The translations under genes were made by a program, and so were the position numbers. Positions 12,283 through 63,966 of a stretch of DNA of 64,000 bases are shown in pieces. The notes under the pieces were generated by a model, which was given only the letters and a program-made list of their open reading frames with translations, was not told the origin of the DNA and searched no databases. The first letter of the stretch is position 1, and each line of letters begins with the position of its first letter. Origin of the DNA: Pseudovirgaria hyperparasitica (Eukaryota); NCBI GenBank assembly GCA_010093815.1, contig ML996576.1. One strand, 5' to 3'.

Positions 12283-14197
12283 TCATGCGCCACCGCCGGC
12301 ACTCATCATCCTTCTTGCCGCAACCCTCTCCCGGGCCTTCGCCGCTCGGTCCTTGTCCATCAGACTATTGGTGCGCCGACCATCATTGAAGGGGCTATGC
12401 TGATGCGACTGCGGTTCTGCGGCTGATTGTCTCCGCGTATGCTGTTGAGCTGGAACGTGTGCAAGATGGTGGGCAGAGTGACCGCGTAAGTGCATCGGAA
12501 CAGGTCCTGTCGCGGCTCCAGGCGGGCCAGTCGAACCGGGGCGCTTTGGGACGGAGATCAAGTCCGACGCGTCGACCGGGGCTGTAGCGGGTCGGCGATA
12601 TTCACGACGGCTCGGACGATATTCCCGGTGGTGATCATGACGGTTGCTCGGTTGGTGCTCGCATGGTGGAGTTAGGGACATCTGTGAGGCGGACGCGAGC
12701 GCGGCTCGTGCTTTAGCCCCCATGCTTACGCCAATGCTGCCATTTATGTTTCCTAGGGTTGCTTGTGAGCCAGATCTTTGCTCAGACGGCTTGTGTACTG
12801 GCGGGGGAAGGGTGAGTTTGTCAAGTTTGCTTGGTGAGATATAGAGATCTTGCACCCAAGGGTCAGGAGAGGAACGCACTTCCGTTGGGGGTTTGGGTGG
12901 TGCAGGTGTGGAGCTTGTGTTGACATCATCTTTGCTTGGTGGATGGTTGTTCTCTTTCGTCAAAGTGTTCGAGTGGAGCTCATGGAGAGGCGGGCGGTCT
13001 GGTAGTACGGACGTTTCTGTTGGTGCATAGGACGTGTTTTTACGAGTACTACCACTTAAAGGTCTAGCAGACTTGCTCCTGCGTCGTCCGCGGGCTGGTG
13101 ATTGGGCGGATATGCGAGGCATACCATTCTGCATCTTCATTGCCTGGTCTTCGGAGATTATAGACTCGTCTTGTTTACGGCCCTTGCTCTTGATAGGCTT
13201 CACGCCCAAGCTTAGGAGCTGATGTTTGAGAGCGACCACTTCTCGATTCACTCGTAGGTTTTCCTGCGTCACGCGCCGTATCTGATCGTGATAGTCCCTG
13301 TTCTGCATCTCGAGTGCGTGGTTACGAGATGCAAGTTTCTTGCGCTCTTGATCCATGGCCACCCCAAGCTCTGTCACCTCCTGATCCTTCTTGGCCGCAT
13401 AGTTCTTTGCCAGTTTCGCCTTATTGACCAGTCTCTTCATTTCGCGCGTACTGTTCTCAGAGTATGTGAGATACTGTTGCTTCCAGTACTTCCCTGATTC
13501 TGATCTCGGTTCTGACAAATCCAATGTGATATCCAAGTCGTCCCTTGCCCAGGATTTAGTAACCGCGTCATTCGCAGAACTGGTCTTCCTACTCGTCTTA
13601 GGTTGAGATTCCTCCTTTGGCTTGATGGTTTCGCGAGCATCGTACAAAGCCTCTGCTAGCTTGCTGCTGCGGGATTTTGTATCGCCAACTGAGGCCATTC
13701 GTGGTGTCCACGGACTTGGGAACTTGCCGGGAAAATTTGCCGGAAGACCACTCCGTCCAATGGCCGGCTCCTTTCCTTCATTGTCCACGACTTGCGTGCC
13801 AAATGAAACAGTCTTTCGTCCTTTCGAGGTGGTGCCAGGTGTCATAAGAATGCCACTAGGCTTCCCGGAAGGCTGGGCTATGTTCTGGTCTACATCCATA
13901 GCAGCACCTTCAATCTGTATATATGGAGCTGTCTTTTCCGTAGGTACTTTCTTTTCAACTAGCTTCTGTTCTTTGCCGGGCACGGACTTGATCTCGTGGT
14001 CTGGATGAGGTGTGCCGAAGAGAGCCTGTTTGAAAGCTCGGACGGGGAAGACGTGTGCAGGAGTCTCCGGTGGCTCAATGAAGGTAGTATCTAGGTAGGA
14101 ATAGGTTCAGCTGGTGATCCAGTACGGACAGGTATCACATACCTTGTAGGTCTTCTGCTACATTGGTGATTCGGGGTCCACTAATCCATGAAAACAT
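12283..14197 (-). CDS. Spindle-pole-body Cut12-domain protein; exons 14197-14143 and 14090-12283
   Basis: EPPETPAHVFPVRAFKQALFGTP, GILMTPGT...KTVSF, FPGKFPSPWTP and LDLSEPRSESGKYWK motifs followed by a coiled coil; GTATGT..TAG intron. Confidence 0.85.
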
Positions 14198-14211
14198 CTC
14201 CAAAGGGCGAG

Positions 14212-14424
14212 ACGCGTAGACTCGAATAAAAGAGTGTTAAGACAATCAAGCCGCCACAAGATTTAGAAAGTATGCTATGCTAATGCAGAGCGATACTCCG
14301 TAGTATCTGTTCGCGTCGCGCTTAAGACCAAGGTGACGGACAGTAACAGAGTCGTGGTTTGTTTGTGTATTGTGGCAGCAGGCGGTTTTGAGTATCAGCT
14401 AGCGCGCATGCTTTGGCCACGCGT
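14212..14424. promoter_or_regulatory. MCB-like ACGCGT elements in the Cut12/GCN2 divergent intergenic region
   Basis: ACGCGT at 14212-14217 and 14419-14424, plus TCGCGTCGCG at 14311-14320. Confidence 0.35.
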
Positions 14425-14820
14425 CCGAGTGAGAGAAAGAGGGTAATCGCGGTCAAGGAGTCGCAGTCGAGATTGGCTTAAAAAGCAAAGAGCTGTTGTG
14501 AGGTCGAATGTTGCGAGTTAATTGGACGATGGAAGTCGCATTGCTATATTGAATCTGTGTGTTTACTTCGAGAAGCTGTCGCTGATGCCGCTAGCACTGG
14601 ACGCTGTTCCAGAAAGAGTTTAGACCATCTGCTGCTCCAGGTCTGACTGCCACTTCGCCCTCGCCGCCGCTGTTCTTACAGCGAAGCGAAAGACACACTT
14701 ACTATATTCCAGAGATATCTTGATTTATACAATGTTGTCTCACGCCGTGTGAAGGGTTGCAGCTCCGGCTGCACGTCTCTCAATCGACCCATGCCTCCTT
14801 TGGTCGACATCTGAGTCTAG

Positions 14821-19816
<4,996 letters not shown>

Positions 19817-27157: not shown

Positions 27158-28657
27158 TCAGCGAATGCAAGAAAGACACTTCTTCTCAATCCATCTTGCA
27201 AAACGTACACTTGGTGCATCGATCAGTCTTTCGACCTGTGCAGCAGCAAAGAAGACGGGTAGTAGGAGGACAGGGTACCAGACAAACGCGCAAAGAAGCC
27301 AATAACCAAGAGATTCTTCGTGTGGTGCCAGGCTTGGTGGGTCCAGTCCAAAGAGCTGGAACAGGAATGCCTGAAACCGGAGAGCGAAGAGATAAATGAC
27401 AGCCTCATGTATGAGATAGAGAGAGAATGACACTTTGCCAAGATATTGACACAGTCGTGTTTCGAATACAGCTTTGAGTCGAGGCAGTTGAGATATTGAT
27501 CCTAGAATACCGACGCCAGATAGGGACCACCAGAAACGCGCGTGATCTTCCATGTACAGGCCAGTGGGAGTGTGTCGTCGCATGAATTCGAATCCCACCA
27601 TTGGTCTTGTATCAACCCATGGATATGCTTCCTTGTCGAGGGTTGGAAAGCCTCCAATATAAAAGGATAACAAGAAGATTGTAACCCATAAGGCTCTAGC
27701 TTTGTTTGTGATGGTCTTTCGGACTGCCAATGCGTCGAAGTTCTTCTCTTGAGCGAGGTTGATATCGGCAAGGAGCATTCCTGAGGCGAAGCAGAAGTAA
27801 TGCCAGGCTCCGGAGCACATGCAAATGACAACTAGAAACGCGGTGAAGATCATGCGAGTGATATGACTTGGTACGTGTATGAAAGACAGCAACCAGATGT
27901 AGCATAGGAAAGAGCCGTAAAATTCAAGAGGTATGGTCCATATGACAGCCTCATACCTGGGATGCGTCACAAACCCATGCATCGAGCGATAAAAATTGTG
28001 GACCGGGTTCATGAGGTGATCGAGGTCGAGCAACCAGTCTTTGACTTGTCCCCAGAACGTAGGTTCAGGCTTGAAGCTGAAGTTAAGAGGCGGCGCAAAT
28101 CCAACACGCGTTCCCAGCATCTCGAAGAAAGTCAGCAGTATGACGGGGCCATACAATCTAAACCCGCGTCGGAACATCGAAGACGCCACTGCTGGATAGA
28201 CCCGAGGGGCTGCTCCTGCACGTAGCCATAGAAGACTTTTGTGCGTCAGAACATAGCCGGAAACCACGAAGAAGAGTGAAACTGCAGGACCCCCAGAGAC
28301 GAAGATAGTCCTGACGAAAGGAAAGCCGAGGAGATTGGTAACGGAAGGGTCAGCATGCCAGGCAGGGACGAGTCGTATCCAGCATCCCATGGAGTGGAAG
28401 ATGAACACCCCAAGAGCAGCAACTCCGCGAACACCATCTAACCATGAAGTCGAGCGTAGCCGTATTGAATCTGAAGATGGATAGCCTATCAGTCTTCCTA
28501 ACAACGTTGTGCACGTCTTCTTCACGGATGATGACCGACGTCGTGGCTCCGAGACAGCACTGTCAGGCCTATGCAAGGCTTCAACGTCGAGTTCTGCTTC
28601 ATCCCTCAGTTCTGAGAGTTTCTCTAGCTCTCGGGAGGATGGTAATGTGAGTCCCAT
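27158..28657 (-). CDS. Acyltransferase-3 (OafA-like) membrane O-acyltransferase, single exon
   Basis: WLDGVRGVAALGVFIFH, AVSLFFVVSGYVL, RRGFRLY, WTIPLEFYGS, YLGKVSFSLYLIH; about 10 TM segments. Confidence 0.92.
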   Translation of the reverse strand: MGLTLPSSRELEKLSELRDEAELDVEALHRPDSAVSEPRRRSSSVKKTCTTLLGRLIGYPSSDSIRLRSTSWLDGVRGVAALGVFIFHSMGCWIRLVPAWHADPSVTNLLGFPFVRTIFVSGGPAVSLFFVVSGYVLTHKSLLWLRAGAAPRVYPAVASSMFRRGFRLYGPVILLTFFEMLGTRVGFAPPLNFSFKPEPTFWGQVKDWLLDLDHLMNPVHNFYRSMHGFVTHPRYEAVIWTIPLEFYGSFLCYIWLLSFIHVPSHITRMIFTAFLVVICMCSGAWHYFCFASGMLLADINLAQEKNFDALAVRKTITNKARALWVTIFLLSFYIGGFPTLDKEAYPWVDTRPMVGFEFMRRHTPTGLYMEDHARFWWSLSGVGILGSISQLPRLKAVFETRLCQYLGKVSFSLYLIHEAVIYLFALRFQAFLFQLFGLDPPSLAPHEESLGYWLLCAFVWYPVLLLPVFFAAAQVERLIDAPSVRFARWIEKKCLSCIR

Positions 28658-29507: not shown

Positions 29508-30893
29508 TTAATATCCAAGCTTCTTCGCAAACCACTTCCCTGCTCTGACGCTCGTCTGATCGAAATAGATTGTCCCCATATGTGCGACGCTCATGCATAT
29601 AGACAAAGATACGAATGCACATACCAGGAATCGGGAACTTAGCCCGATCGGGCCGATGTCCGGTATCCACAACCGATTGTCCCACCAGGTTGGATGTTCA
29701 TCAGGTCGAGCATCAATTTGTCCAAACATCCGGTGAATTGTCTCACTGAGCGTGAAGTAGACGAGTGCGTGTGTGAGATACAATGAGAACGACACCTGTC
29801 CAAGATAGCGTAACGGACGAGTGACGAAGAACCTCTGAATCCAGGATATACGTCTGCACGAACAGACAATCATGATGGCTCCCATTGATGTCCAGAAGCG
29901 TATGTATTCCACAGCCATGTAGTTCGCTGGTGTGAGCATCGTCACAGTATGCCAGCCTGGCGTGTCCAGTGCCCATTGAGGGCCTCCCATAAAGCCTGGT
30001 TGGCCAGCGAGCCATAGGCCAAGGAAGAGGAGAGCATTGTATATGACATCTGGAGTGACCTTGCTCTGATGTAAAAAAGGATAGCTGAGCTCGTAGACGT
30101 CGATAATGGACATAGTCATGCCCGCGAAGAACATTGCCATCGCCCAATGCCCAACGACGAAAACCAGAACAGTCGCGACCATGAATCCATACGAAAGTCT
30201 TTTCGGGGATATGAATTTCATGCGGCTTGTCACAAAGGCAAGAGCGTATATTAGCATCGACCCTCTGAGCTCGACTGGCATTGTCCACATCACAACTCCA
30301 TAGTAGCACCACCGTCCATTCATCAGACGGAATGGGTTGAAGAACCAGGTGAACTCTGATAGCCAGGCTACCAACTCAAGTGCCAGTGACTGTTTTGGCT
30401 CAGGCCAAGTGACATAGCGTAGCGTGCCAAAGGGCACATGCATCAGAATAGCATATAAGAGAGTCGACATCATTGGCGGTAGGTATAGCCGGATTGGTCT
30501 TTTTAGGACTGACGATATCAACTGAGAGTCACATTTTCCGTGGTCGCGTATTGCGCGTAGTGGTGAACGACTCAGCACATATCCCGAGAGGACGAAGAAG
30601 ACTGGGACGGCAGTATGACCCCCTGTGTAAATTAAACGGAAGATCGGAAAGCTGCCGAGGTAGTAATTCCCGTTCTCTCCGAATCCATGATTTAGATTGT
30701 CGCTTTCTCCATAGAAGTACGGAGTGTAATGCTGGAGGACGACTATTAAGGCGGCGATGCCTCGTAGGCCGTCTAGGTACGCGGTCGACCGTGAGGCGAG
30801 TTGCTGGTTTTCTACATCTGGTACAAGGCCTTCCGAAATCGGGTCGGAATCGTGGATAAGCTCCTTCTCCTCCGTGAGTGCATTTGACATCAT
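29508..30893 (-). CDS. Acyltransferase-3 (OafA-like) membrane O-acyltransferase, tandem paralogue, single exon
   Basis: YLDGLRGIAALIVVLQH, AVPVFFVLSGYVL, KRPIRLYLP, WTMPVELRGS, YLGQVSFSLYLTH. Confidence 0.92.
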   Translation of the reverse strand: MMSNALTEEKELIHDSDPISEGLVPDVENQQLASRSTAYLDGLRGIAALIVVLQHYTPYFYGESDNLNHGFGENGNYYLGSFPIFRLIYTGGHTAVPVFFVLSGYVLSRSPLRAIRDHGKCDSQLISSVLKRPIRLYLPPMMSTLLYAILMHVPFGTLRYVTWPEPKQSLALELVAWLSEFTWFFNPFRLMNGRWCYYGVVMWTMPVELRGSMLIYALAFVTSRMKFISPKRLSYGFMVATVLVFVVGHWAMAMFFAGMTMSIIDVYELSYPFLHQSKVTPDVIYNALLFLGLWLAGQPGFMGGPQWALDTPGWHTVTMLTPANYMAVEYIRFWTSMGAIMIVCSCRRISWIQRFFVTRPLRYLGQVSFSLYLTHALVYFTLSETIHRMFGQIDARPDEHPTWWDNRLWIPDIGPIGLSSRFLVCAFVSLSICMSVAHMGTIYFDQTSVRAGKWFAKKLGY

Positions 30894-42583: not shown

Positions 42584-43865
42584 ATGCATCTCAATGAAGA
42601 TGCGAAGTACCGAACGTCGACTCAGTTTCGGTATTGGAATTTTACTCCAGACTCATTAGCGTCGTTGCGTCGAAACACCAATCGAGCCGCAGTAGAGCGC
42701 GTGAAGGCAGCCTTCGACCGGCGCCGCAAAGCTCGAATTGCTGCAGACAAAGCACAAAATGGCGGAGAAGTGACTGTAGTGTCAGAGTTGCAGACCAAAG
42801 AGGTAGAATGTTTGACTTTAGAGGAGGAGCAGAAACTACTGGGGTACTACTGCGCGCAATGTCTGAAGATGGGCAAGGACAACTTCAAGTACCCCGCAAA
42901 CGTATACGTGAGAGAGGACACCATGCCTTGAGTTCTCCATGCTTACTGCTCAGGGAACTGCAATTCAGTATATGAAACGATTCTACTTGTTCAACTCTCC
43001 AATGACATATCACCCCAAAGACATTCTCAAGACTGCTCTTTTTGTCGCAACTAAAACCGAGAACCACCACCAAGACTTGGACAAATACTGCGGACAAATA
43101 GGAGGAAAAAAGCCGACTCTTCGAGACGATGTACTAGCCCCAGAATTCATCTTGACTCAAGCACTCAGGTTCACATTTGAAGTGAGACATCCCTTTCGAG
43201 GTCTGACTGGTGGTCATCTGGAACTTCTGTCCATGGCTAAGGGAGAGGCAGCTGTACTTCCTGGGCACTCACAGTCTGCCGTACAACTACAGCAGGCTCT
43301 ACTTAGTCTACCTCAGACCTCTGGTGGGCCTGAAATCATACACGAGGTGCATCAGATGGAGAAACGCATCACAGAAGCTCATAGTATTGCATCCGATCGC
43401 TATCTCAAAAATGCAGCCCTGCTTACCGATGCGTACTTTCTCTACACGCCTTCTCAAATTTGGCTCGCCGCTCATCTCCTCGCCGACGAGCCACTGACTC
43501 TCTTCTATCTTGATACCAAGTTTACTGTCGCTCCTGGATCAAACTCATCAGCTCCACTCAAAACTAGGGTCATTTCCACCATCCGTAGCTGCGCGACGAT
43601 GATATCAAATGGAGATACACCATCCCAGCCAACTCTCGAAGAGCGTGCCGAACTCACACGTGTAGACAAGAAACTATACCAATGTCGTAATCCTGATAAA
43701 ATAGATTTGATTGGCCTGAATAAAGCACAGAAACGCGACGCTACTATGGATGGGAAGTTGGAGGAAGGACTGGCGAAGAAACGAAAAATTGAGAGAGAAA
43801 AGCAAGAGAAGGAAGCTGACGACTTTTGGGGTCCACCTCTACCAAATACAGGCGCTCCAGGCTAA
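42584..43865 (+). CDS. CCL1: Cyclin H (TFIIK/CAK cyclin); exons 42584-42907 and 42954-43865
   Basis: YRTSTQFRYWNF, TAIQYMKRFYLFNSPMTYHPK, LFVATKTEN, EFILTQALRFTFEVRHPFR, LLTDAYFLYTPSQIWLAA. Confidence 0.93.
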
Positions 43866-44211
43866 CGAGGGTCCGGATAGTGTCCTAACAACTCGGAACA
43901 TACGTCTCTGCTTCCCTGGAATCATGGCTCATAGGTATTTGAATCCAGGGGTGTGTTCGGACCATGAAAAAGGAGAAAGAAACTCGACGCTACATATGGG
44001 ACAAAAGTCGAGTGTATCTCCTGGTCGCGACCGGCAACTTCTTGTAGTAAAGAACGAATCTTCCGGTTTAGACCTCGCAGTAATGTCAAATATATGAGTC
44101 TGATGATTTGTCTCAATATTGGTAGCGGACCCCATTCAATCAAGGGGATAATACATGTCTGTTCTATTCTACAAGAGTGAACGTGACCCATGAATCCAAT
44201 ACTTTAACTTT

Positions 44212-46326
44212 TCATACATCACGCCAGTCTTGAAGATCCGGAGAGAGCCCAGTGACACTTGAGACATTTCCAGCGAACCAGTCCGCAACCTCCGTACGAT
44301 ACATCTCAGAGTTCAGTCGGTGGTTATCTGCCTCCCTTTCTTCTTCTTCATCCACCGAACGATCCTCCAGACAATCATGCGGATACTGCATAGCTGGTCC
44401 ATCCGTGGAAACATGTTTACGCTCACGTGTATGCTGTGCCTGGTACTTCAGACACTCAATCTCTTGCTCTTGCTGATGGATGACCTCGCTTATTGTTTGC
44501 GGAGCTTGTGTTTGGATAAACATTTTCAGCTTCATATACTGGATATTCATGTCCTTCATTTGAGCCTGTAGTGTCTCGATCGTCCCTTCTAAATCTAATA
44601 TCTTGGACTGTGCAAGGCTGTTGGACATCTCTTCGTGTAGGAGTCGACTTTCACTTGCATCTAGCTTTTCCTCCATAGCGGTAAGTGTTTCGTTGCGCTC
44701 GGCTAGAGTACTATGAGACACGCTGAGCTCGGCACGTAGTAAGCTGTTCGAGCGTACGAGGCTTGATATTCGAGTTTCAGCAAGCATGGCGTACGAGAGG
44801 TAGCTTGGATCGTTTGGGTGGGTTTGCTCCTCTGGATTGCGAGCCAGAGCGCTATTCTCGGCCAAGTTCCTCGAACCAAACAGTCCAGAGATATGTCCTC
44901 GGGCCAGTACATCAAGCAAGGTCAGACGGTTTCGGGCGAGGTCTTCGTATTGTTTGGCCTCTTCACAAAGGAGTGCAACAGTCTGATCTGCGATTCCAAT
45001 TGATTTCTCCTGGGTGGTGCGCTCCGTTTTAAGCCTCTTTATGGTCTGCAAGGCGTCGTTCATCTCCGCGATGGAAAGACTGCTCAGACGATTCTTGCTC
45101 TCCACTGCGTCGGCGACATCTTCTTTGAGCTGGACATTCTCAATCTTTAAGTCGTGGTATTCTGACAAGATCTTGAGCGCAGAGTCTTGGATCTGCCTGT
45201 CTTTAACTTGATCCCGCGCCAACTGCCCCTGAAGCTCCTCGACGAGGTGAGATTGTGTCTCGATCCCCTCTTGAGCTTCGGCGAGTTCTTTCCTAAGCTG
45301 GTCGTTCTCGGACTTGAAGTCGGCGATACTTGTTCCCACCGCCCAGTCTTTAATTCGCTCCTCGATCAGGCGCTCTTCTCGCAGCTCTGCCACAAGATCT
45401 CTTGCAGCTCGCGCTTCTGATCGACACACCTTTGACAATTGATCAATTTCCTTTGTCAACTCCTCCTTCTCTAGGACAAGCGTATTGACAATCTCCGCCC
45501 GCTCCACGACTGACCTGAGACTGTTCATACACGTCGAGCACTGCGGCATGAACTGCGAATCGCGATCATGCGTATGCTCCGCTCGCTCCCACTTACAGAT
45601 CCCCGCCGCTTCATATATACACCCACTAATCACACGACACAGTTCCTCATTGTGCTCGCGAACTTTGCTCGTCTCGTCCCCCATCTCTTCAATCCACCCA
45701 CCAGGATTCAGACGTAGCTTACCAAGCGGGGACAAAAGAGCCAGCAAGATCATTTCACACCCGTGGCAGTTTATTTGGAACCCATCGTCAACGTTGTGAA
45801 GGTGGTACTCGGTGTCGTATGCATCAGCGAACATGTTTCTAAGGGCCCCAGAGACCAGGTCTTCGTGGCGTCTGATATCATCTTCCTGTGTCTCCGCCTT
45901 CCTAAATGCCGTGCGCGCCTCTAGTCTCGAAGTCTCATATGCTTTCTCCGATTCAAGTCTCGCACTGCGTTCGTGCTCTAGCGCGCGCTTCGTCGCAACG
46001 AGTTGTATACGCAGTGGGTTTATCTGTTCGAACAGGCGTTTCTCTTCTGCCATCCACTTTTGTCTTTCACGTGAGAATTCTCGATCCTTGAAGTACAACT
46101 CGTCGTTCATTTGCTCCTTCTTGGTCCTGAGTTTGCAAAAGTGGTACGCCCAGGTCACGCCAATAGAACCAATGAAGCCTGCTTCGTTCATGTCTAGGTT
46201 AGTGGTGGGTGGCGCCGTGAGATGTGTGAAGGAGTCCATGTGCGAGAGGCAAAGCTTGGGTGCACAACAGCCAGTATTGCTTCCCGTGTCGCTGTGAGGC
46301 ATTAGACTTGATGATTCAGTCGACAT
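44212..46326 (-). CDS. Uncharacterised 704-aa coiled-coil protein with two HxH-x9-CxxC motifs
   Basis: 2.1-kb uninterrupted ORF; E/K/L/Q/R-rich heptad segments; no family recognised. Confidence 0.8.
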   Translation of the reverse strand: MSTESSSLMPHSDTGSNTGCCAPKLCLSHMDSFTHLTAPPTTNLDMNEAGFIGSIGVTWAYHFCKLRTKKEQMNDELYFKDREFSRERQKWMAEEKRLFEQINPLRIQLVATKRALEHERSARLESEKAYETSRLEARTAFRKAETQEDDIRRHEDLVSGALRNMFADAYDTEYHLHNVDDGFQINCHGCEMILLALLSPLGKLRLNPGGWIEEMGDETSKVREHNEELCRVISGCIYEAAGICKWERAEHTHDRDSQFMPQCSTCMNSLRSVVERAEIVNTLVLEKEELTKEIDQLSKVCRSEARAARDLVAELREERLIEERIKDWAVGTSIADFKSENDQLRKELAEAQEGIETQSHLVEELQGQLARDQVKDRQIQDSALKILSEYHDLKIENVQLKEDVADAVESKNRLSSLSIAEMNDALQTIKRLKTERTTQEKSIGIADQTVALLCEEAKQYEDLARNRLTLLDVLARGHISGLFGSRNLAENSALARNPEEQTHPNDPSYLSYAMLAETRISSLVRSNSLLRAELSVSHSTLAERNETLTAMEEKLDASESRLLHEEMSNSLAQSKILDLEGTIETLQAQMKDMNIQYMKLKMFIQTQAPQTISEVIHQQEQEIECLKYQAQHTRERKHVSTDGPAMQYPHDCLEDRSVDEEEEREADNHRLNSEMYRTEVADWFAGNVSSVTGLSPDLQDWRDV

Positions 46327-46850
46327 TGTTGGATTTGAAAAGGGGAATATCTGTGTTGAGTAATCTAAGTCAAGAGATCGACCTTTTCTGTCGCGTGAGT
46401 TCGAAAGCTATCAAGAGAAAGCTATCAAGCAATCTTCTCTTTGGAAATTCGAAAACAGGTATGAAATTGAGCAGCCAGCACACTAATGAGCTATCTGGCA
46501 AACGGGACAGCGAGCAAAAGGGAATGTACACGTGCTTGTGTGGAACCAGCAGAGATGCTACTTAGTTAAGGGAGCTCAGTGACGTTCAAGGCCTGATGTG
46601 AATATTGCAATACGAATCATACCTAGTTCATTACCGATTTTCTTCTTCAATATGCCTGATTCGATTCACAGTGGTCCAATGATGTTCAAGCCGGGGGTTC
46701 TATAGAGCTTTCAATCCTTGTCACATCTAGACGCAAGAGTATGACGACCTCGCAGGCAATGTATTACTACAGCAGGTCGATGTCTTCTCATTAAATGCCA
46801 TCCGACCAAGTTCACTTGTGCTTCCAGCTACTGCCATCTATCCACTGATC

Positions 46851-48440
46851 TTACAGGTACAGGCCCTCTGGTTCGCCTTCACTCTTAGTCTTCAGTACTC
46901 TTTCTCTTGCTGAGCGGAAATCTGCCATCTGCACCCGCATCCTTCGCTCACGGAGTGCCATGAGACCGGCTTCGGAGCAGATAGCCTTGATATCTGCTCC
47001 AGAAAGATCATCTTTCTGGTTGATGAATTCATCGAGATCGACATCATCGGACAGTGACATCTTTGAGGTGTGTAGAGTGAAGATCTTTTTCTTTGTGTTC
47101 TGGTCCGGATTCTCGAAGAGGATCTTGCGATCTATACGTCCAGGTCGGATCAAGGCAGGGTCAAGTGTCTCAATCTTATTAGTTGCCATGATCACTTTGA
47201 CATCGCCGCGATCATCAAATCCATCAAGTTGATTAAGGAGCTCCAACATAGTACGCTGGACCTCCCGTTCACCACCAGATGTCGACTCATATCGTTTCGT
47301 GCCAATCGCGTCGATCTCGTCGATAAACACTATTGATGGGGCGTGCTCGGCAGCGACCTGGAAGAGCTGCCGCACCAATCGTGGGCCGTCACCAAGATAT
47401 TTCTGGATCAGCTCACTACCAACGATACGAAGGAAAGTTGCGCTGGTCTGGTTGGCCACAGCTTTGGCTAGCAGTGTCTTTCCAGTACCAGGACCTCCAT
47501 AGAGGATGACACCCTTCGGTGGCTTGATACCCATCTCCTCATAGAGCTCCGGATGAAGTAGAGGTAGCTCCACGGCTTCTCTTACTTCTTGTATTTGCTG
47601 CTCCAAACCACCAATATCCGCATACGATTCCGTAGGTGCTTTGTCCAGCTTCATGACCGATACAAGTGGGTCGGCATCATCTGTCAGTACACCAACGACC
47701 GAAACAGACTTGTGGTGCAGGAGTATGCTGGCTCCCGGCTCAAGGAGATCCTTATCGACGAAAGACATGATCGAGACATAATACTCCGGTCCGGTAGCAC
47801 TAGAAACGATCGCATGATCGTCATCGATCAACTCTTCCAGGTTTCCAACGCCCATGGGACTGCCCCTCATATCATCAACTCTAGATCTTTCATCGGCGTT
47901 GCGGTCAATAGCGTCGGAATCGCCACCAGCAGCGGCTGGCTGGGTGGTACTTGCTGCTTTGGCCTTGCGGATGCGTTCCTGATTCTCGACGTATTCCTCC
48001 TCCAACAATAGATGATCGTGAATTCGTTGCATACGCAGATACTTAAGCTTACAGCGTGCTGTCGGGTATACTGTCGGGAGCTTTGCAGCGGCGTTTGGGC
48101 CTGCAGCCTTTCTTTTCTTACGACCGATACGGGTTGTTGGCTGCGGTGGTGGTTCATACTTGGGCTTATCCTTCTATAAAACATGATGTGTTAGTTTTTG
48201 TCTTCGCGTACCACATCAGATATATACAGGAGGCAATAGATTCAAGTCGCGTATCATAGGTTCAGCCATCTGATGGTGTTCTTTCTCTTTCGTAAATGAG
48301 AGTTTCATACCTTGCCGTCTTTCTTGTCCTTCCCACCCTCACCTGGCGCTCGGCCACCCGCGCTTGATTGGTTCGCGCCCTATAGAGAACGTCAACATAG
48401 CTCCTCGGCCTAGGTGTTCTTTATCGTGTATGCTTACCAT
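46851..48440 (-). CDS. RPT2: 26S proteasome AAA-ATPase subunit 4; exons 48440-48438 (ATG only), 48380-48311, 48174-46851
   Basis: MGANQS myristoylation start, [45 protein letters not shown]-terminal HbYX motif EGLYL. Confidence 0.97.
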
Positions 48441-49154
48441 ACTGAAAGTGTGCTTAGCAACTCTAGGCTAATAGCGCGCGTGTGAACGGTTTGTAGTGAT
48501 GAAAATTTGCAGGTTGTCAACAGAATGACGAAAGAGATGCACGAGATGCAAGTAGTTGATGGGTTATACAACCAGCGACGTTTACATGTGTATGAGAGCT
48601 CGATAGCCCTGGAAGATTGATGGGGATGTTGGTAGACGGATAGGTAAGCTGCGCTAGTCGGTGGCGTCTACTAGCGCTGCTGCTGTAGCTGTACCTTCGT
48701 GGATGACTGGCCGCTGGCAAACGAATGGAACCACGAAGCCAGATTCGAGGATTGTTGCAACACGTCAAACCCTCTTCTTCAACGAAATCACCCGGCTACT
48801 TCTACCTGTAATCTGGACGTCGTATACATATACATACAACCATCCAACTATACTTCCCTCTCATCTTCTCTCCACGTCTAAGCTCGCGTGAACGACTACT
48901 GATCACCCCACCGTCAACATTACACTGTGGTATGAATACTACATAAACACACTCAGAGATCAATACTCACATAAGACCTGCTCCAGGCCTACTGTTTTTC
49001 GCGAACAGAAAAACCCGATACCCTTCCCCAAATCACGACCTGTTACCTACAGACGCCTAGGCAAGCATTCCCAAGGGCTCGCCTTGTCTGTCCGACACCT
49101 CCGGCGCTACCTCGACACCTGCTACATCTACGTTTTGGTCTTCAGTTCTACGAT

Positions 49155-49989
49155 ATGTCGAATCGAAATCGTCGCATTGCAAAGGAAATTGCCGACATTC
49201 AAAACGACAGACATTCACAAATAGAAGCCGGACCTGCTGGCAATGGGGACGATATGACCCATCTGACTGGGTCGTTTCCTGGGCCGCCAGATACTCCTTA
49301 CGAAGGTGGCACATATGTAGTCGATATCAAGATACCGACTGACTATCCGTTTCGCCCACCACTCATGCGGTTCACAACTAAGATTTGGCATCCTAATGTC
49401 AGCAGCCAAACGGTAATGCTCCGAACCATAAGTCAATGTATCGATCCTTGACCTATTCTTGTAGGGTGCAATCTGCCTCGATACTCTCTCCTCCCAGTGG
49501 TCTCCAGTCCTCACAGTCAAGTCCGCCCTCATATCACTACAGTCATTACTCAGTACACCAGAGCCAAAAGACCCCCAAGACGCCGAGGTCGCCGCGATGC
49601 TTATCAGACAGCCAGAAGAGTTCAAACATAAGGCAATGGAATGGGCTGTGAAGTACGCAGGTGCATCTCGCAAAGAGCAAGGTGAAGGCAGCGGTGGTGC
49701 CACGGCTGAATCTATCAGGCGCAAAGCAGCACAGGCGAAAGAAAATGAGGAGAAGGCGAGGCTGGAAGCGTAGGTGCACCCCGAACTATATCAGATCAAA
49801 GCTAACAATTGTAGATATCATGGGTACAACAAGCAACTGATCGACCGATTTGTGGACATGGGTTTCGACGTACCTGCAGTGGTGTCTGCTTTTGAATATT
49901 TAGAGATCGACAAGAACAATGGGGAAGATTATGAGCTGGAAGAGGCGTACATGGGCGATATCACTGCACGACTATTTGGCGAAGCATGA
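49155..49989 (+). CDS. UBC1: Ubiquitin-conjugating enzyme E2 with C-terminal UBA domain; introns 49413-49464 and 49770-49814
   Basis: [38 protein letters not shown] (catalytic Cys), [15 protein letters not shown]-like IDRFVDMGF. Confidence 0.95.
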
Positions 49990-59180: not shown

Positions 59181-61420
59181 TTATCGTACGACTATTTCTA
59201 TAGCGTCGTCTGGGTTAGATAAATCAAGAATATCAATCATCTCCTGTGATAGACGGGTGCGACCGGTGACGAGTCCAACTCTATAGTACTCTTTTCCATC
59301 CGGGTTGGCTTTCAAGGCAACGCCACACAGGTGATCGGCACCGTCAATCATGAGCGGAAGAATGAAGATGCCAACATCGATATCGGGAACTTCGCTCATC
59401 CAGCGGCCATCACGTTCAACGTACGTCCCGCGGGGAGTGTACCGATTCGGGACGTCGGGGTAGAAGCTATACTTCATGTCACCAAGATTGCCAACACCAC
59501 CCTGTTTCACGACGAGGAACGGTGTCCATTTGGCTGTCTGGTATTCCTCCCCTCCCAGGAGTGCTACGAATAGCTTCGAGCGGACATGGATGTGCCCTTC
59601 ACTTACTTGACCGTATGGATCTGGCGTACTCGACAGACTAGCAAGCTTTGTTGTGGTGCTGATTGCCGATTGCGTCCACCGAACCTGATCGCCAGGACGC
59701 TCGAACTGCCAGACAACCGGATATCCCTTGGACGCAGCCCAGACCTTGGATGACCATGACCAAGAGGGCGAAACATCCTCCCTCATTTCTGGTCTATCTT
59801 TCCCTTGGCCCTCAGATGACCACTCGTAGCTGTATCGCCATAGCAAGGCGCCGGGGAAGTCACCTACCCAAAGCCCCGCGAGCAGTCTATCCTGGTCCAT
59901 CGGCGACGGATATCTGTGTGCGATGCCAGAAATGGCCGGTAAACGATCCTTCTCGAACGTGAGGTGACAGATCGAGTACCGTCCCACCAGACTGTACCAC
60001 CATTCGTAATACTGGACGGCATCAGAGTACGTAGGAAGAGTCTTGGTCATGTTCGGTCTCGACAAGGGAGCGCTGTATTCCAGGTCACTGATCTCGTAGC
60101 GTCGCGAGTGTGAACACTCAAAGAAGATCTGGCTCGAGCCAAAATAGAGAATCCGGGGTGACAACAGCCACTCCTGAAAGACCCAGCCCCGATCCTTCAA
60201 CCCTGAGACGCCCGGGTGCGTGGTCGGACTCACACATCCGCCTTGACTGGATGTTCGGAAGCATATGCCAGGGTGCCACATTGTCACTGAACCTTGCGGC
60301 TCCCCTTGCTCGTTCCTGTATTGGAGCTCCACCGAGTGCGTACTTCTCCGTGGTAATAGGAACGCCGAGTATGAGTTCTCGGCCCCTGGGACTGTAATGG
60401 TCACGGCGGTTTGTCCGTATATGGACGCCATCCTCGGACATTCGCGTTCCCAGTCTTGCGTGTCGTCCTGGATGATGCATAACGAGTCGATCCATATATA
60501 CTCGTATCCGAGCGTCTGGGTTGCGAGAACTGCGTCTCTAAATGTCTCCGGGAGGTTCTCGGTCACTATGGATGACATATGCTGCTGAATGTTTGTGCGT
60601 AACGTACGCATCGGCAAGCGGTCGGTGCCCCATCTGTGGGAGAGGGTAGTATAGTCATACCGCTCTGAGTTCGTTGTCGCTATGAGTTTGACGATTGAGC
60701 CGTCTCCAATGATCTGAAGTAGTCGCGTCGGATTTGTCCAGGTTACCACTTTACCTCGAGCGCAAGAAGCATGGCCCTCGCAATCTTTGATCCATTGCCT
60801 GGCTAGATCGAAATCGGGATATGCACAGCACTTTCGCCCCATGAATCGGCCCTCCTGTCGCGCCTGACTCCCTGGGGACTTCAACATCAGTACTGTGGAA
60901 CATACCGAGAGATCATGTCCTGTTACACTCACCAGCTTCTGCGGCAAGTACAATACCTCCAAGGTAATCCTTCCCTTCGTGAACTCTTTCCCTGTTTTCG
61001 GAAACGATCTGAGTCAGCCACTATGCCATGCTACGACCCGAGTGAACGGGTGTGATGAAGTACATACGGGGTCTGGCTTGACTCGTACTCAGTGGAAGCT
61101 GTCAAGAGAGGTTGTCCTTCGTGTCGAGGTATAACAATATTGCCACATCGGACAAATGGATTCTGTCGGCGGTCGTAGCTTTCGAGACACAATGGTAAAA
61201 GTAACTGGCATAGCTCGCAACCGCCTTGGGCAGAATCGTACAATGCTTTCCAATGCCAGTAGTGGTCTTCACTGTCGTATTTATAGCCCTTGATAACCTT
61301 ATGTCGTAGCACCTTCTCCTCGAATTTGTAGCAGACATCGCAGAGCGTGGACTTTACAGTCCTTGGTAAGCGGGACATGATCTGCCCTGTGCTAGTACTC
61401 GAAGAGGTCGAGTCGGCCAT
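59181..61420 (-). CDS. HET-domain (heterokaryon incompatibility-like) protein with N-terminal Cys/His cluster; two introns, near 61068-60992 and 60932-60872
   Basis: CDVC...H...SAQGGCELC N-terminus; PTRLL, YTTLSHRWG, LPETFRDAV, YIWIDSLCIIQDD, MASIY, RGWVFQEWLLSPRIL, DRLPAISG, PSWSWSS. GTATGT..CAG and GTGAGT..CAG splices join the two ORFs in frame via a short exon (ERVHEGKDYLGGIVLAAEA). Confidence 0.9.
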
Positions 61421-62070: not shown

Positions 62071-63966
62071 TCAAAGAGGAATCTCCACGTCATCTTTGAA
62101 CGGCCAAGCTCGCATCCATTGACTTCTTTCTTCATCGTGGTACGCGTGGCGACGCAGAAAGTCTTCGCGATGACGGGCCAAGCGTTCTTTGTACAACGAG
62201 TAATTGCTGTGATTCACCCACCCATTCCATCCCTGGTATGCTCCTATCTGCGTCAAACTCTCGTACATTAGCTCGACACCTTCGTTCCAACTCTCCTGAA
62301 GACGTTGCTGGTGTGCCCTGTCATCGGGGGTATATGAAAGAGGGCATGCTGTCTCGGAGTTGGCACATGTCGTCCATTCATCCTGAAGTTGTATGAGCAT
62401 GCCCTGGAGGACCGGCTCTCCGTCGCTGAAGATTGAGCTTGCTATACCGGTGATCTGACCGGGTAGAGTATCTCGAAAGCGCAATGCACGGGCAATGTCT
62501 GGACACTGACGCAGCATGGAAATGTCGTAGAGTTTGTAGAGAGATTGAGCAGCCCGGAGGATCTTCGCCTGGTGTTGTTCATCCTCATTCAATTTGTCAA
62601 AATCGTCAGGTAATTCTATGGGTTTTAGACCCTCTGGAATTGGCCCTTCAAACTCGATAAGAGAAGGATGTCGTGCTTGAAGGAAGAGCGGGGAGACATT
62701 GACAGCTTGCCAATCAATCACGTTTAGGATTTTGGTCGGCTGGGAAGGGTCAACGAAGATGTTGTCGGCATGTAGATCGGAATGCCAGAGAACTGGCTTA
62801 GAGAGATTTTCATCCTTGGGCAGAATCTGTGTTGCTACTTTCAAATAGTCTCGGAGGACTTTGATCTTCAGTTCTTTGGTCGGACGATACTGGTTGGGAC
62901 CGTTGAACATCCCTTGCTGATTAGGGAATCTCGAGAATTTCTCAATGCATGCCAGCTCTCGATTGGCACGGGAAGAGATGAAATCGTTGATTGAAGACCC
63001 TATCACTCAGTCAGCTTGGGTCGAGCACGAGGGCGATGGTAAGGGGTGTTACAAGGCCCTCGCTTCGCTTCAACGTTGTATCTTCCTCCATCGAAGAATG
63101 CTCTATTGGTCGTTGGGCCGATCGCAAATGGCGCAACTTCACCTACCACATCTGTGGAATTGAGGAATTGACCCGAGCTTAGGTTAGGCAGATCCTTCGC
63201 ATAATACAAGCTCCCGTACATGGGTGAATTGACAGAATACATAGCTTTTTCGTAGCCAACCAATGACCTCACAATCTCAAACTTGTCTTTCCCAGGCATG
63301 TTTTCCCATATTTTGCCTAGCTCTATCCCTTTACTGCGTTCCATCAAAATATACTCTGCTCTAACAGGGTTGTCTGTTGAGGAGCAGTAGCCATATACCT
63401 GGGGTGCAGGAATGCCAAGGATGTTCCTAATCTTCAATGGCCTCATATTAGCGACTGCTAAACGTGACGCCTGGGATAACTCATACGTAGTCCATTGTAG
63501 CGACTTCACTGGCCGTTGTGAAGTGCGGCGGTCCAGCATTTGGATTTGGAATTTTAGCGATCAAATCTCGGCCATCATCAAATGTGATCAAAAAGACCTT
63601 GTTGAAGTTTCCTTCATGCAGCTTTTCGATTTCGACGCAAGACCGGCCTCCCATCGCCTTCGACGAGACTTGGAGGAGTCCAGGTAGGTTGAACCTGACA
63701 TAACGGCAGGCAAGCTGATCATGCTCATTCCAGAGCCATCGACCCGATGTATATCTGTAGAATTTCTCTAAGTCGTGGTCTCGAAAGTCGAGATTGTGTG
63801 AAGTAGTGGTGTGATAACTTGGGTGGGGCAACGTGGCCGAAGCCAATGGAGTCGACGAGCTGGAATAAGAAAAATTGTACCGAGACCAAGCAATTCGCAG
63901 GGAAGATTGTCCGAGACGCAATGTTGATGGACTACGAGACGCAGCATATGCAGCTAGAGACGACAT
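62071..63966 (-). CDS. APH/choline-kinase-like phosphotransferase (Aim9-like); exons 63966-63487, 63431-63053, 62999-62071
   Basis: YRYTSGRWLWNE, EGNFNKVF, IAKIPNPNAG...TASEVATMDY, EYILME, LWHSDLHADNIFV, IDWQ. Arg/Ser-rich, acid-free N-terminus resembling a mitochondrial presequence. Confidence 0.9.

Follow-up and report, generated by a model that had tools for sequence, protein, structure and literature searches.

An orphan gene between a cyclin and a proteasome ATPase

The window, by which we mean the whole stretch of 64,000 nucleotides that was analysed, contains a single-exon open reading frame of 704 residues between a cyclin gene, which we take to be CCL1, and a proteasome ATPase gene, presumably RPT2. 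The stretch belongs to contig C12 of a fungal genome whose housekeeping genes contain introns; judging by its genes, the fungus is probably a filamentous ascomycete. The locus comprises:

42584..43865, plus strand: cyclin H/CCL1-like gene with a Cyclin_C_2 domain, convergent with the orphan (Pfam)
44212..46326, minus strand: single-exon orphan ORF P0001, 704 aa (ORF list, codon statistics)
46851..48032, minus strand: last exon of the RPT2-like proteasome AAA ATPase gene, upstream of the orphan (Pfam)
45145..46262, strand unspecified: contig of run X1, free of gaps and joints, with both repeats described below inside it (public run)
44202-44999, strand unspecified: second X1 contig over the orphan ORF (public run)

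Codon log-odds, from a table trained on nine genes of the window, are clearly positive for the coding frame only (0.121 in frame against values between -0.06 and -0.22 for the remaining five), while the His/Cys module taken alone scores merely 0.024 in frame. There is an A at -3 relative to the first ATG, and a search of the organism's own genome (35.4-Mb assembly) finds the ORF in one copy. In NCBI nr/UniRef the identical 704 residues form a cluster with no other member; since this means that an annotation pipeline called the same ORF, it is no independent proof of a gene. The region is also present in two public runs (X1 and X2) from the same sample, neither recorded as RNA. All seven joints in their contigs (7/7) are GT-AG or CT-AC skips located in the neighbouring genes, and therefore we take both runs to be RNA. 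Contigs of X1 cover most of the orphan ORF without introns, but leave uncovered stretches between it and each neighbour, and those of X2 leave 44612-45815 uncovered; in both cases holes between contigs carry no proof. Depth over the orphan is about 6.5, compared with 700-2,500 over its neighbours, though depth in such data is unsuitable for ranking genes. Transcription of the ORF, a point raised in the earlier note, is thus probable, as contigs of runs with RNA-like splicing span both repeats, with read-through from either neighbour as the other possible source.

The position of the orphan between CCL1 and RPT2, to which the earlier note drew attention, turned out not to be a kept one. We compared the best 80 of 263 RPT2 relatives, 30 of which have at least 2.5 kb downstream. 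Within these 80 loci CCL1 occurs in six, always beyond the UBC gene on the opposite side of RPT2, so the order CCL1-orphan-RPT2 is not preserved, and all 80 are devoid of an orphan homologue (best phmmer E = 2 in 5,003 frames). The pattern HxH-x6-14-CxxC appears in six short frames of the RPT2 loci, never twice in one.

Other features of the neighbourhood are better kept. The divergent RPT2-UBC pair (46851-49451) is widespread, UBC being found in 43 of the 80 loci, with many of the others too short. In two related loci (L074/L075, 1-10279) GCN2, Cut12, CCL1, UBC and RPT2 all lie within 10 kb; here the same stretch is shuffled, with the five genes in another order and spread over ~37 kb (12283-19816 and 42584-49451). 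The gene for a Cut12-domain spindle-pole protein (12283-13899, minus strand, Pfam E 1.4e-26) adjoins GCN2, 30 kb from the orphan. Elsewhere in the window there are two tandem intronless membrane-protein ORFs (27158-28657 and 29508-30893, minus strand), presumably acyltransferase-3 paralogues judging by their translations. Near the window end, also on the minus strand, 59181-60887 is what we take to be a HET-domain-like ORF, which matches locus L026 at 33%, and 62071-63966 presumably a phosphotransferase-like gene in several frames.

A duplicated His/Cys unit between two coiled coils

The orphan protein is built mostly of coiled coils, with the His/Cys module placed between the first and the second:

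45832..46158, minus strand: coiled coil 1, aa ~57-165 (heptad score, dimer model, AlphaFold2 long helix)
45733..45876, minus strand: repeat 1, aa 151-198, comprising helix A with H154, HxH (175, 177), CxxC (187, 190) and a short helix B (alignment, model)
45865..45867, minus strand: H154, fifth candidate ligand of repeat 1 (alignment, dimer model)
45757..45804, minus strand: motif 1, H-x-H-x2-D-x2-F-x3-C-x2-C, aa 175-190 (pattern search)
45505..45663, minus strand: repeat 2, aa 222-274, comprising helix A with H225, HxH (251, 253), CxxC (263, 266) and a helix B that runs into coiled coil 2 (alignment, model)
45652..45654, minus strand: H225, the repeat-2 equivalent of H154 (alignment)
45529..45576, minus strand: motif 2, H-x-H-x2-D-x2-F-x3-C-x2-C, aa 251-266 (pattern search)
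44932..45531, minus strand: coiled coil 2, aa ~266-465 (heptad score)
44497..44784, minus strand: coiled coil 3, aa ~515-610, with an acidic tail after it (heptad score)

Our own heptad score is high over residues ~57-165, 267-465 and 515-610 and falls across the module, in agreement with the view of the earlier note that the motif pair breaks up a long coiled coil. The observation at the heart of that note is also confirmed in the ORF: H-x-H-x9-C-x2-C is present twice, with equal spacing, at an offset of 76 residues and with D and F in register. It is the sole C/H four-ligand pattern repeated within the protein. Two copies of H-x(1-3)-H-x(4-24)-CxxC with equal spacing arose in none of 20,000 whole-protein shuffles, and any C/H four-ligand pattern occurred twice in 4/20,000, the same number as when only aa 140-280 were shuffled (4/20,000). 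The form with six fixed residues (H, H, D, F, C, C) occurs twice in 35.4 Mb, both times in this ORF, with none in the control.

Could the two motifs nevertheless be a coincidence, brought up by a very large scan? The look-elsewhere effect over many proteins is large: by our arithmetic the rate is 2 in 10,000 per protein, and a chance pair could occur somewhere in a proteome. The four-residue motif as a DNA pattern in any frame is found 180 times in the genome (111 in the control), and the ungapped self-diagonal at offset 76 is unremarkable, its score of 35 being attained somewhere in 78 of 100 shuffles. Outside the ligands, similarity between the copies gives p 0.046 for the spacer, 0.22 for the 12 residues after CxxC and 0.022 for the sum; the upstream stretch with free register gives p 0.18, and local alignment of the two halves p 0.007-0.009. 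The two motifs are identical in 19 of 48 bases. Against coincidence, however, stands a match between the preceding helices that is independent of the four ligands (p ~0.004), as well as the helix-loop-CxxC-helix layout common to both copies, and we consider chance a poor explanation, at long odds.

The resemblance of the preceding helices had been suggested by the earlier note and holds up. Helices 151-169 and 222-240, with boundaries picked after inspection, align with a BLOSUM score of 17 and a hydropathy correlation r of 0.71 (that same shuffle p, taken over 11 registers), and none of 341 coil 19-mers from the same protein equals this match on either value. The repeating unit is accordingly larger than first described: a helix carrying a histidine (H154 or H225), then HxH, then CxxC, then another helix. 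The upstream histidine lies 21 residues ahead of HxH in the first copy and 26 in the second. Aligned in this way, the repeats share ten identical columns, five of which are His or Cys, at an overall identity of ~16%. The idea of a four-ligand HHCC module has to be extended, since each unit has five candidate ligands, with H154 and H225 in register.

An old tandem duplication as the origin of the two units is moderately supported by the sequence: we accept it mainly because of the helix-A match, independent as it is of the four ligands, while the generic self-alignment alone falls short of significance. Identical third codon positions between the repeats are near background (4/19 and 7/24), from which we infer that the copy is old and that the shared histidines and cysteines have apparently been under selection. 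A genuine duplication could also be free of metal, having lost it or never bound it, in which case the module would serve as a helical linker, and the gene would be lineage-specific and under weak constraint. The low identity of the copies, the lack of a homologue among 1.84 billion representative sequences and the low confidence of the structure models all suit such a linker. It fits less well with the concentration of His and Cys in 5/10 identical columns while third positions are near background, which suggests selection on ligands, and we regard the metal-free alternative as unlikely.

Coiled coil 2 contains a second internal repeat, aa 336-361 (45244-45321, minus strand) against aa 392-417 (45076-45153, minus strand), spaced by 56 residues, or eight heptads. 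The two stretches agree in 11 of 26 amino acids and in 43 of 78 nucleotides. The best self-diagonals of the 704-residue protein are at offsets 54 and 56. Judging from these sequences, several internal duplications may have enlarged the gene. At the N-terminal side, aa 47-62 (46140-46188, minus strand) form a stretch of mild hydrophobicity with basic residues after it, ahead of coiled coil 1. We considered aa 47-64 as a membrane anchor but discarded the idea, as the highest 19-residue hydropathy in the protein is only 1.21 and lies at aa 183-201.

Searches for relatives

The statement of the earlier note that the module matches no named family is borne out across the sequence, profile, PDB and fold libraries that we searched. 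Homologue searches recovered only the protein itself, with aa 60-340 (3,871 candidates) as well as with aa 300-704 (8,000 scored), and so did a weak search of longer proteins with a two-repeat profile (93 candidates). In 1.84 billion representatives phmmer with aa 110-310 produced two matches, the protein itself and P0002 (E 4.4e-5). We rejected P0002 as a chance match: it is a Ser/Thr-rich repeat protein which matches aa 212-245 eight times and has no HxH or CxxC. Pattern-seeded scans confirmed 0 of 56 stretches in JGI metagenomes, 0 of 35 in viral contigs and 0 of 77 in prokaryote genomes, although these are weak tests requiring exact peptides. No Pfam family is detected in the 704 residues at E up to 1, PHROG and BFVD have no match to the orphan, and PDB sequences return nothing meaningful (three rows at E 0.028-1.3, and none for the two-repeat profile). 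In the ESM Atlas the best value is 0.88, from generic coil clusters, and 0.82 for the module alone, both below lead level, with structure rows at TM under 0.5. Sub-threshold coil matches include ADIP (E 0.0045) and Csm1_N (E 0.07). Literal word matching in the open-access literature found no published report of this motif or of an HxH plus CxxC coiled-coil zinc protein in fungi.

The genome seems isolated in the collections searched: the conserved WD40 neighbour is likewise a one-member cluster at 90%, and the CCL1 relatives found are merely 37-40% identical. That no relatives are seen may thus come from sparse sampling together with fast evolution.

The gene could also have been domesticated from a transposon or virus, as a Gag-like coil joined to an integrase-type HHCC. 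In favour of this, the part of the ORF covered by contigs is intronless and relatives have no orphan at the syntenic position. The integrase HHCC is spaced H-x3-7-H-x23-32-C-x2-C, whereas the spacings here are 1 and 9, and the unlikeness to retroviral integrase noted earlier is evident; moreover, a coil follows instead of a DDE core, with no rve-type family. What the two have in common is only the sequence of ligands, two histidines and then two cysteines (PMC3381236). The orphan is furthermore single-copy, its RIP indices (0.62 and 1.20) are like those of the window (0.71 and 1.22), and it has no match in Pfam, PHROG, viral contigs or BFVD. A mobile-element origin thus appears very improbable.

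A modelled dimer and a candidate zinc joint

Predicted as a single sequence by AlphaFold2, aa 120-300 reach a mean pLDDT of 56.5, with the two coils alone confident and aa 168-263 almost entirely below 50. A model of repeat 1 from the two-row alignment (pLDDT 64) shows a helix at 147-172, a loop and a helix at 188-198. CxxC is placed at the start of this second helix (43-53 of 61 in the model), which is a usual geometry of zinc sites. In fold searches with these low-confidence models the best Z was 4.8 for repeat 1, with none of at least 5 among 48,161 chains, and Foldseek gave nothing at E up to 0.001; for models of such confidence the missing match speaks neither for a new fold nor for a different one.

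An ESMFold2 prediction for a pair of aa 110-325 chains together with four Zn scored 0.41, compared with 0.14 for the best control. In calibration, 21 of 30 proteins solved as pairs attained the dimer mark, and none of 23 solved as single chains did; for eukaryotic proteins the figures were 17 of 29 pairs and 0 of 30 single chains, and for eukaryotic pairs without an older solved relative 1 of 7. Our job differs from the calibration set in that zinc was included, and the zinc itself is unscored, with metal distances not returned. At least 45% of contacts are common between runs, and the pLDDT of the partner is at least 62. The interface consists of a parallel coil over 112-162 together with residues 185-186, 191 and 194-199. 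Contacts run from residues 185 and 191 to H154 of the partner, with an expected error of 2.8 Å, and from 194 to 158; H175, H177 and all of repeat 2 are outside the listed interface. Because residues 140, 144, 147 and 151 pair with themselves across the dimer, we place H154 in the core of the heptad pattern, and H225 aligns to the same position. The earlier note suggested a hinge or dimerisation module; the model is that of a parallel homodimer, although a score passing the mark may reflect a generic coil. It suggests a parallel dimer and, for repeat 1 only, a cross-chain contact. In this respect the HHCC module proposed earlier has to be amended, as the dimer model points to an inter-chain site and not to a self-contained finger.

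What would such a module do in the coil? The feature is real, and it is probably an old duplicated metal-binding module without a catalogued relative. We propose that the gene product is a parallel homodimeric coiled-coil rod, in which two ~50-residue units of ancient duplication lie between coil 1 and coil 2, and that each unit would bind one zinc and form a joint in the rod; we give this reading a probability of about 0.5. Each unit would consist of helix A with a histidine at a core heptad position, the HxH loop, the D-x2-F spacer and helix B capped by CxxC. The chain would exit the coil, turn back and place helix B along helix A of the partner. A more specific version, which we put forward only tentatively, is that of a zinc staple, where the core histidine of the partner is captured in trans by the folded-back HxH-x9-CxxC loop: C187, C190 and one histidine of HxH would share a metal with H154 of the other chain. 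Repeat 2 presumably repeats the arrangement with H225 and runs straight into coil 2, so that two staples in series would make an articulated joint. Sharing the metal would hold both chains together and give the two rigid rods a defined joint, as in CtIP. Zinc, the choice of ligands, the arrangement of repeat 2 and the hinge are what we infer here. The protein may evolve fast and function as a scaffold or tether, and for a rod of this kind a structural tether suggests itself most readily. Our results contain nothing in favour of the spindle-pole, kinetochore or meiotic role that the earlier note brought up.

An alternative closer to the interpretation in the earlier note is that each H-x-H-x9-C-x2-C forms a zinc loop of its own (H175, H177, C187 and C190 in the first copy), serving as a partner-binding surface in the manner of the C-terminal domain of YabA, with H154 and H225 not being ligands at all. 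In favour of such a loop, both copies have the same four residues at the same spacing, whereas the distance to the upstream histidine varies (21 and 26). YabA itself, a coiled-coil protein, binds 0.94 Zn per chain and has H-x-C-x11-C-x2-C in that domain (PMC4705661). This short loop, with an H-x-ligand pair followed by a CxxC pair, is the nearest short motif that we found. Differences from YabA are that the second ligand here is His and not Cys, that the spacer is 9 and not 11, and that the motif is internal and duplicated; the YabA family is bacterial. The YabA profile matches coil 2 only, with E 0.031, below the cut-off, leaving the motif unmatched. Since H154 and H225 align with each other and the dimer model sets H154 of the partner beside the CxxC region, we find the self-contained loop rather unlikely, and the inter-chain joint remains our preferred reading.

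By analogy, the best functional counterpart of this putative joint is CtIP, not as a member of the same family. Its C89/C92 zinc site is common to two chains, breaks a parallel coil and serves as a hinge (PMC8205527). In the CtIP/Ctp1/Sae2 proteins a zinc motif within a parallel dimeric coil sets the angle between coil segments, and the orphan would have a counterpart of it if the dimer model is right. However, each CtIP chain has a single CxxC and the dimer a single zinc, whereas the orphan has two units with candidate His ligands. The SAE2 domain (PF08573) is missing from the orphan, and the one SAE2 match of the genome is on a separate contig (C14). In the Rad50 zinc hook CxxC is also tied to a coiled coil and zinc is inter-chain (PMC5093744), but there the CxxC forms the tip of a coil that is antiparallel and intramolecular and lies between the ATPase halves, while the orphan is modelled as parallel. 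There is no ATPase domain (Walker A and B) in the orphan, and, as the earlier note said, the module goes beyond the lone CxxC of Rad50, having HxH and two copies. The Rad50_zn_hook profile (PF04423) has no match to the orphan or anywhere in the genome, which probably indicates an insensitive profile and not absence. Zinc fingers formed between molecules are also the subject of a paper on ZMYND11 (PMC12839526).

Long coils with weak conservation are characteristic of fast-evolving fungal scaffolds, such as the transverse filament protein Sme4/Zip1, the coiled-coil axis protein Red1 (both in PMC11244814) and Cut12, and in this the orphan is like them, with no sequence link found. Even so, Cut12 of the same window is still detectable (Pfam 1.4e-26, and 34% identity in 2 of the 80 loci), while the orphan matches nothing.

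Zinc sites that interrupt coiled coils, as in the CtIP hinge and the Rad50 hook, shape large chromosome machines, and to our knowledge few kinds of them are known. If our proposal is true, the duplicated His/Cys unit with a cross-chain His ligand would represent an additional kind of zinc-interrupted coiled coil, its weight limited by the protein being a singleton. A 215-residue fragment can be easily expressed and tested. Repeat 2 contains in addition C230, C236 and C244 (45595-45639, minus strand), which have no counterparts in repeat 1; they could make up another metal site or have no significance.
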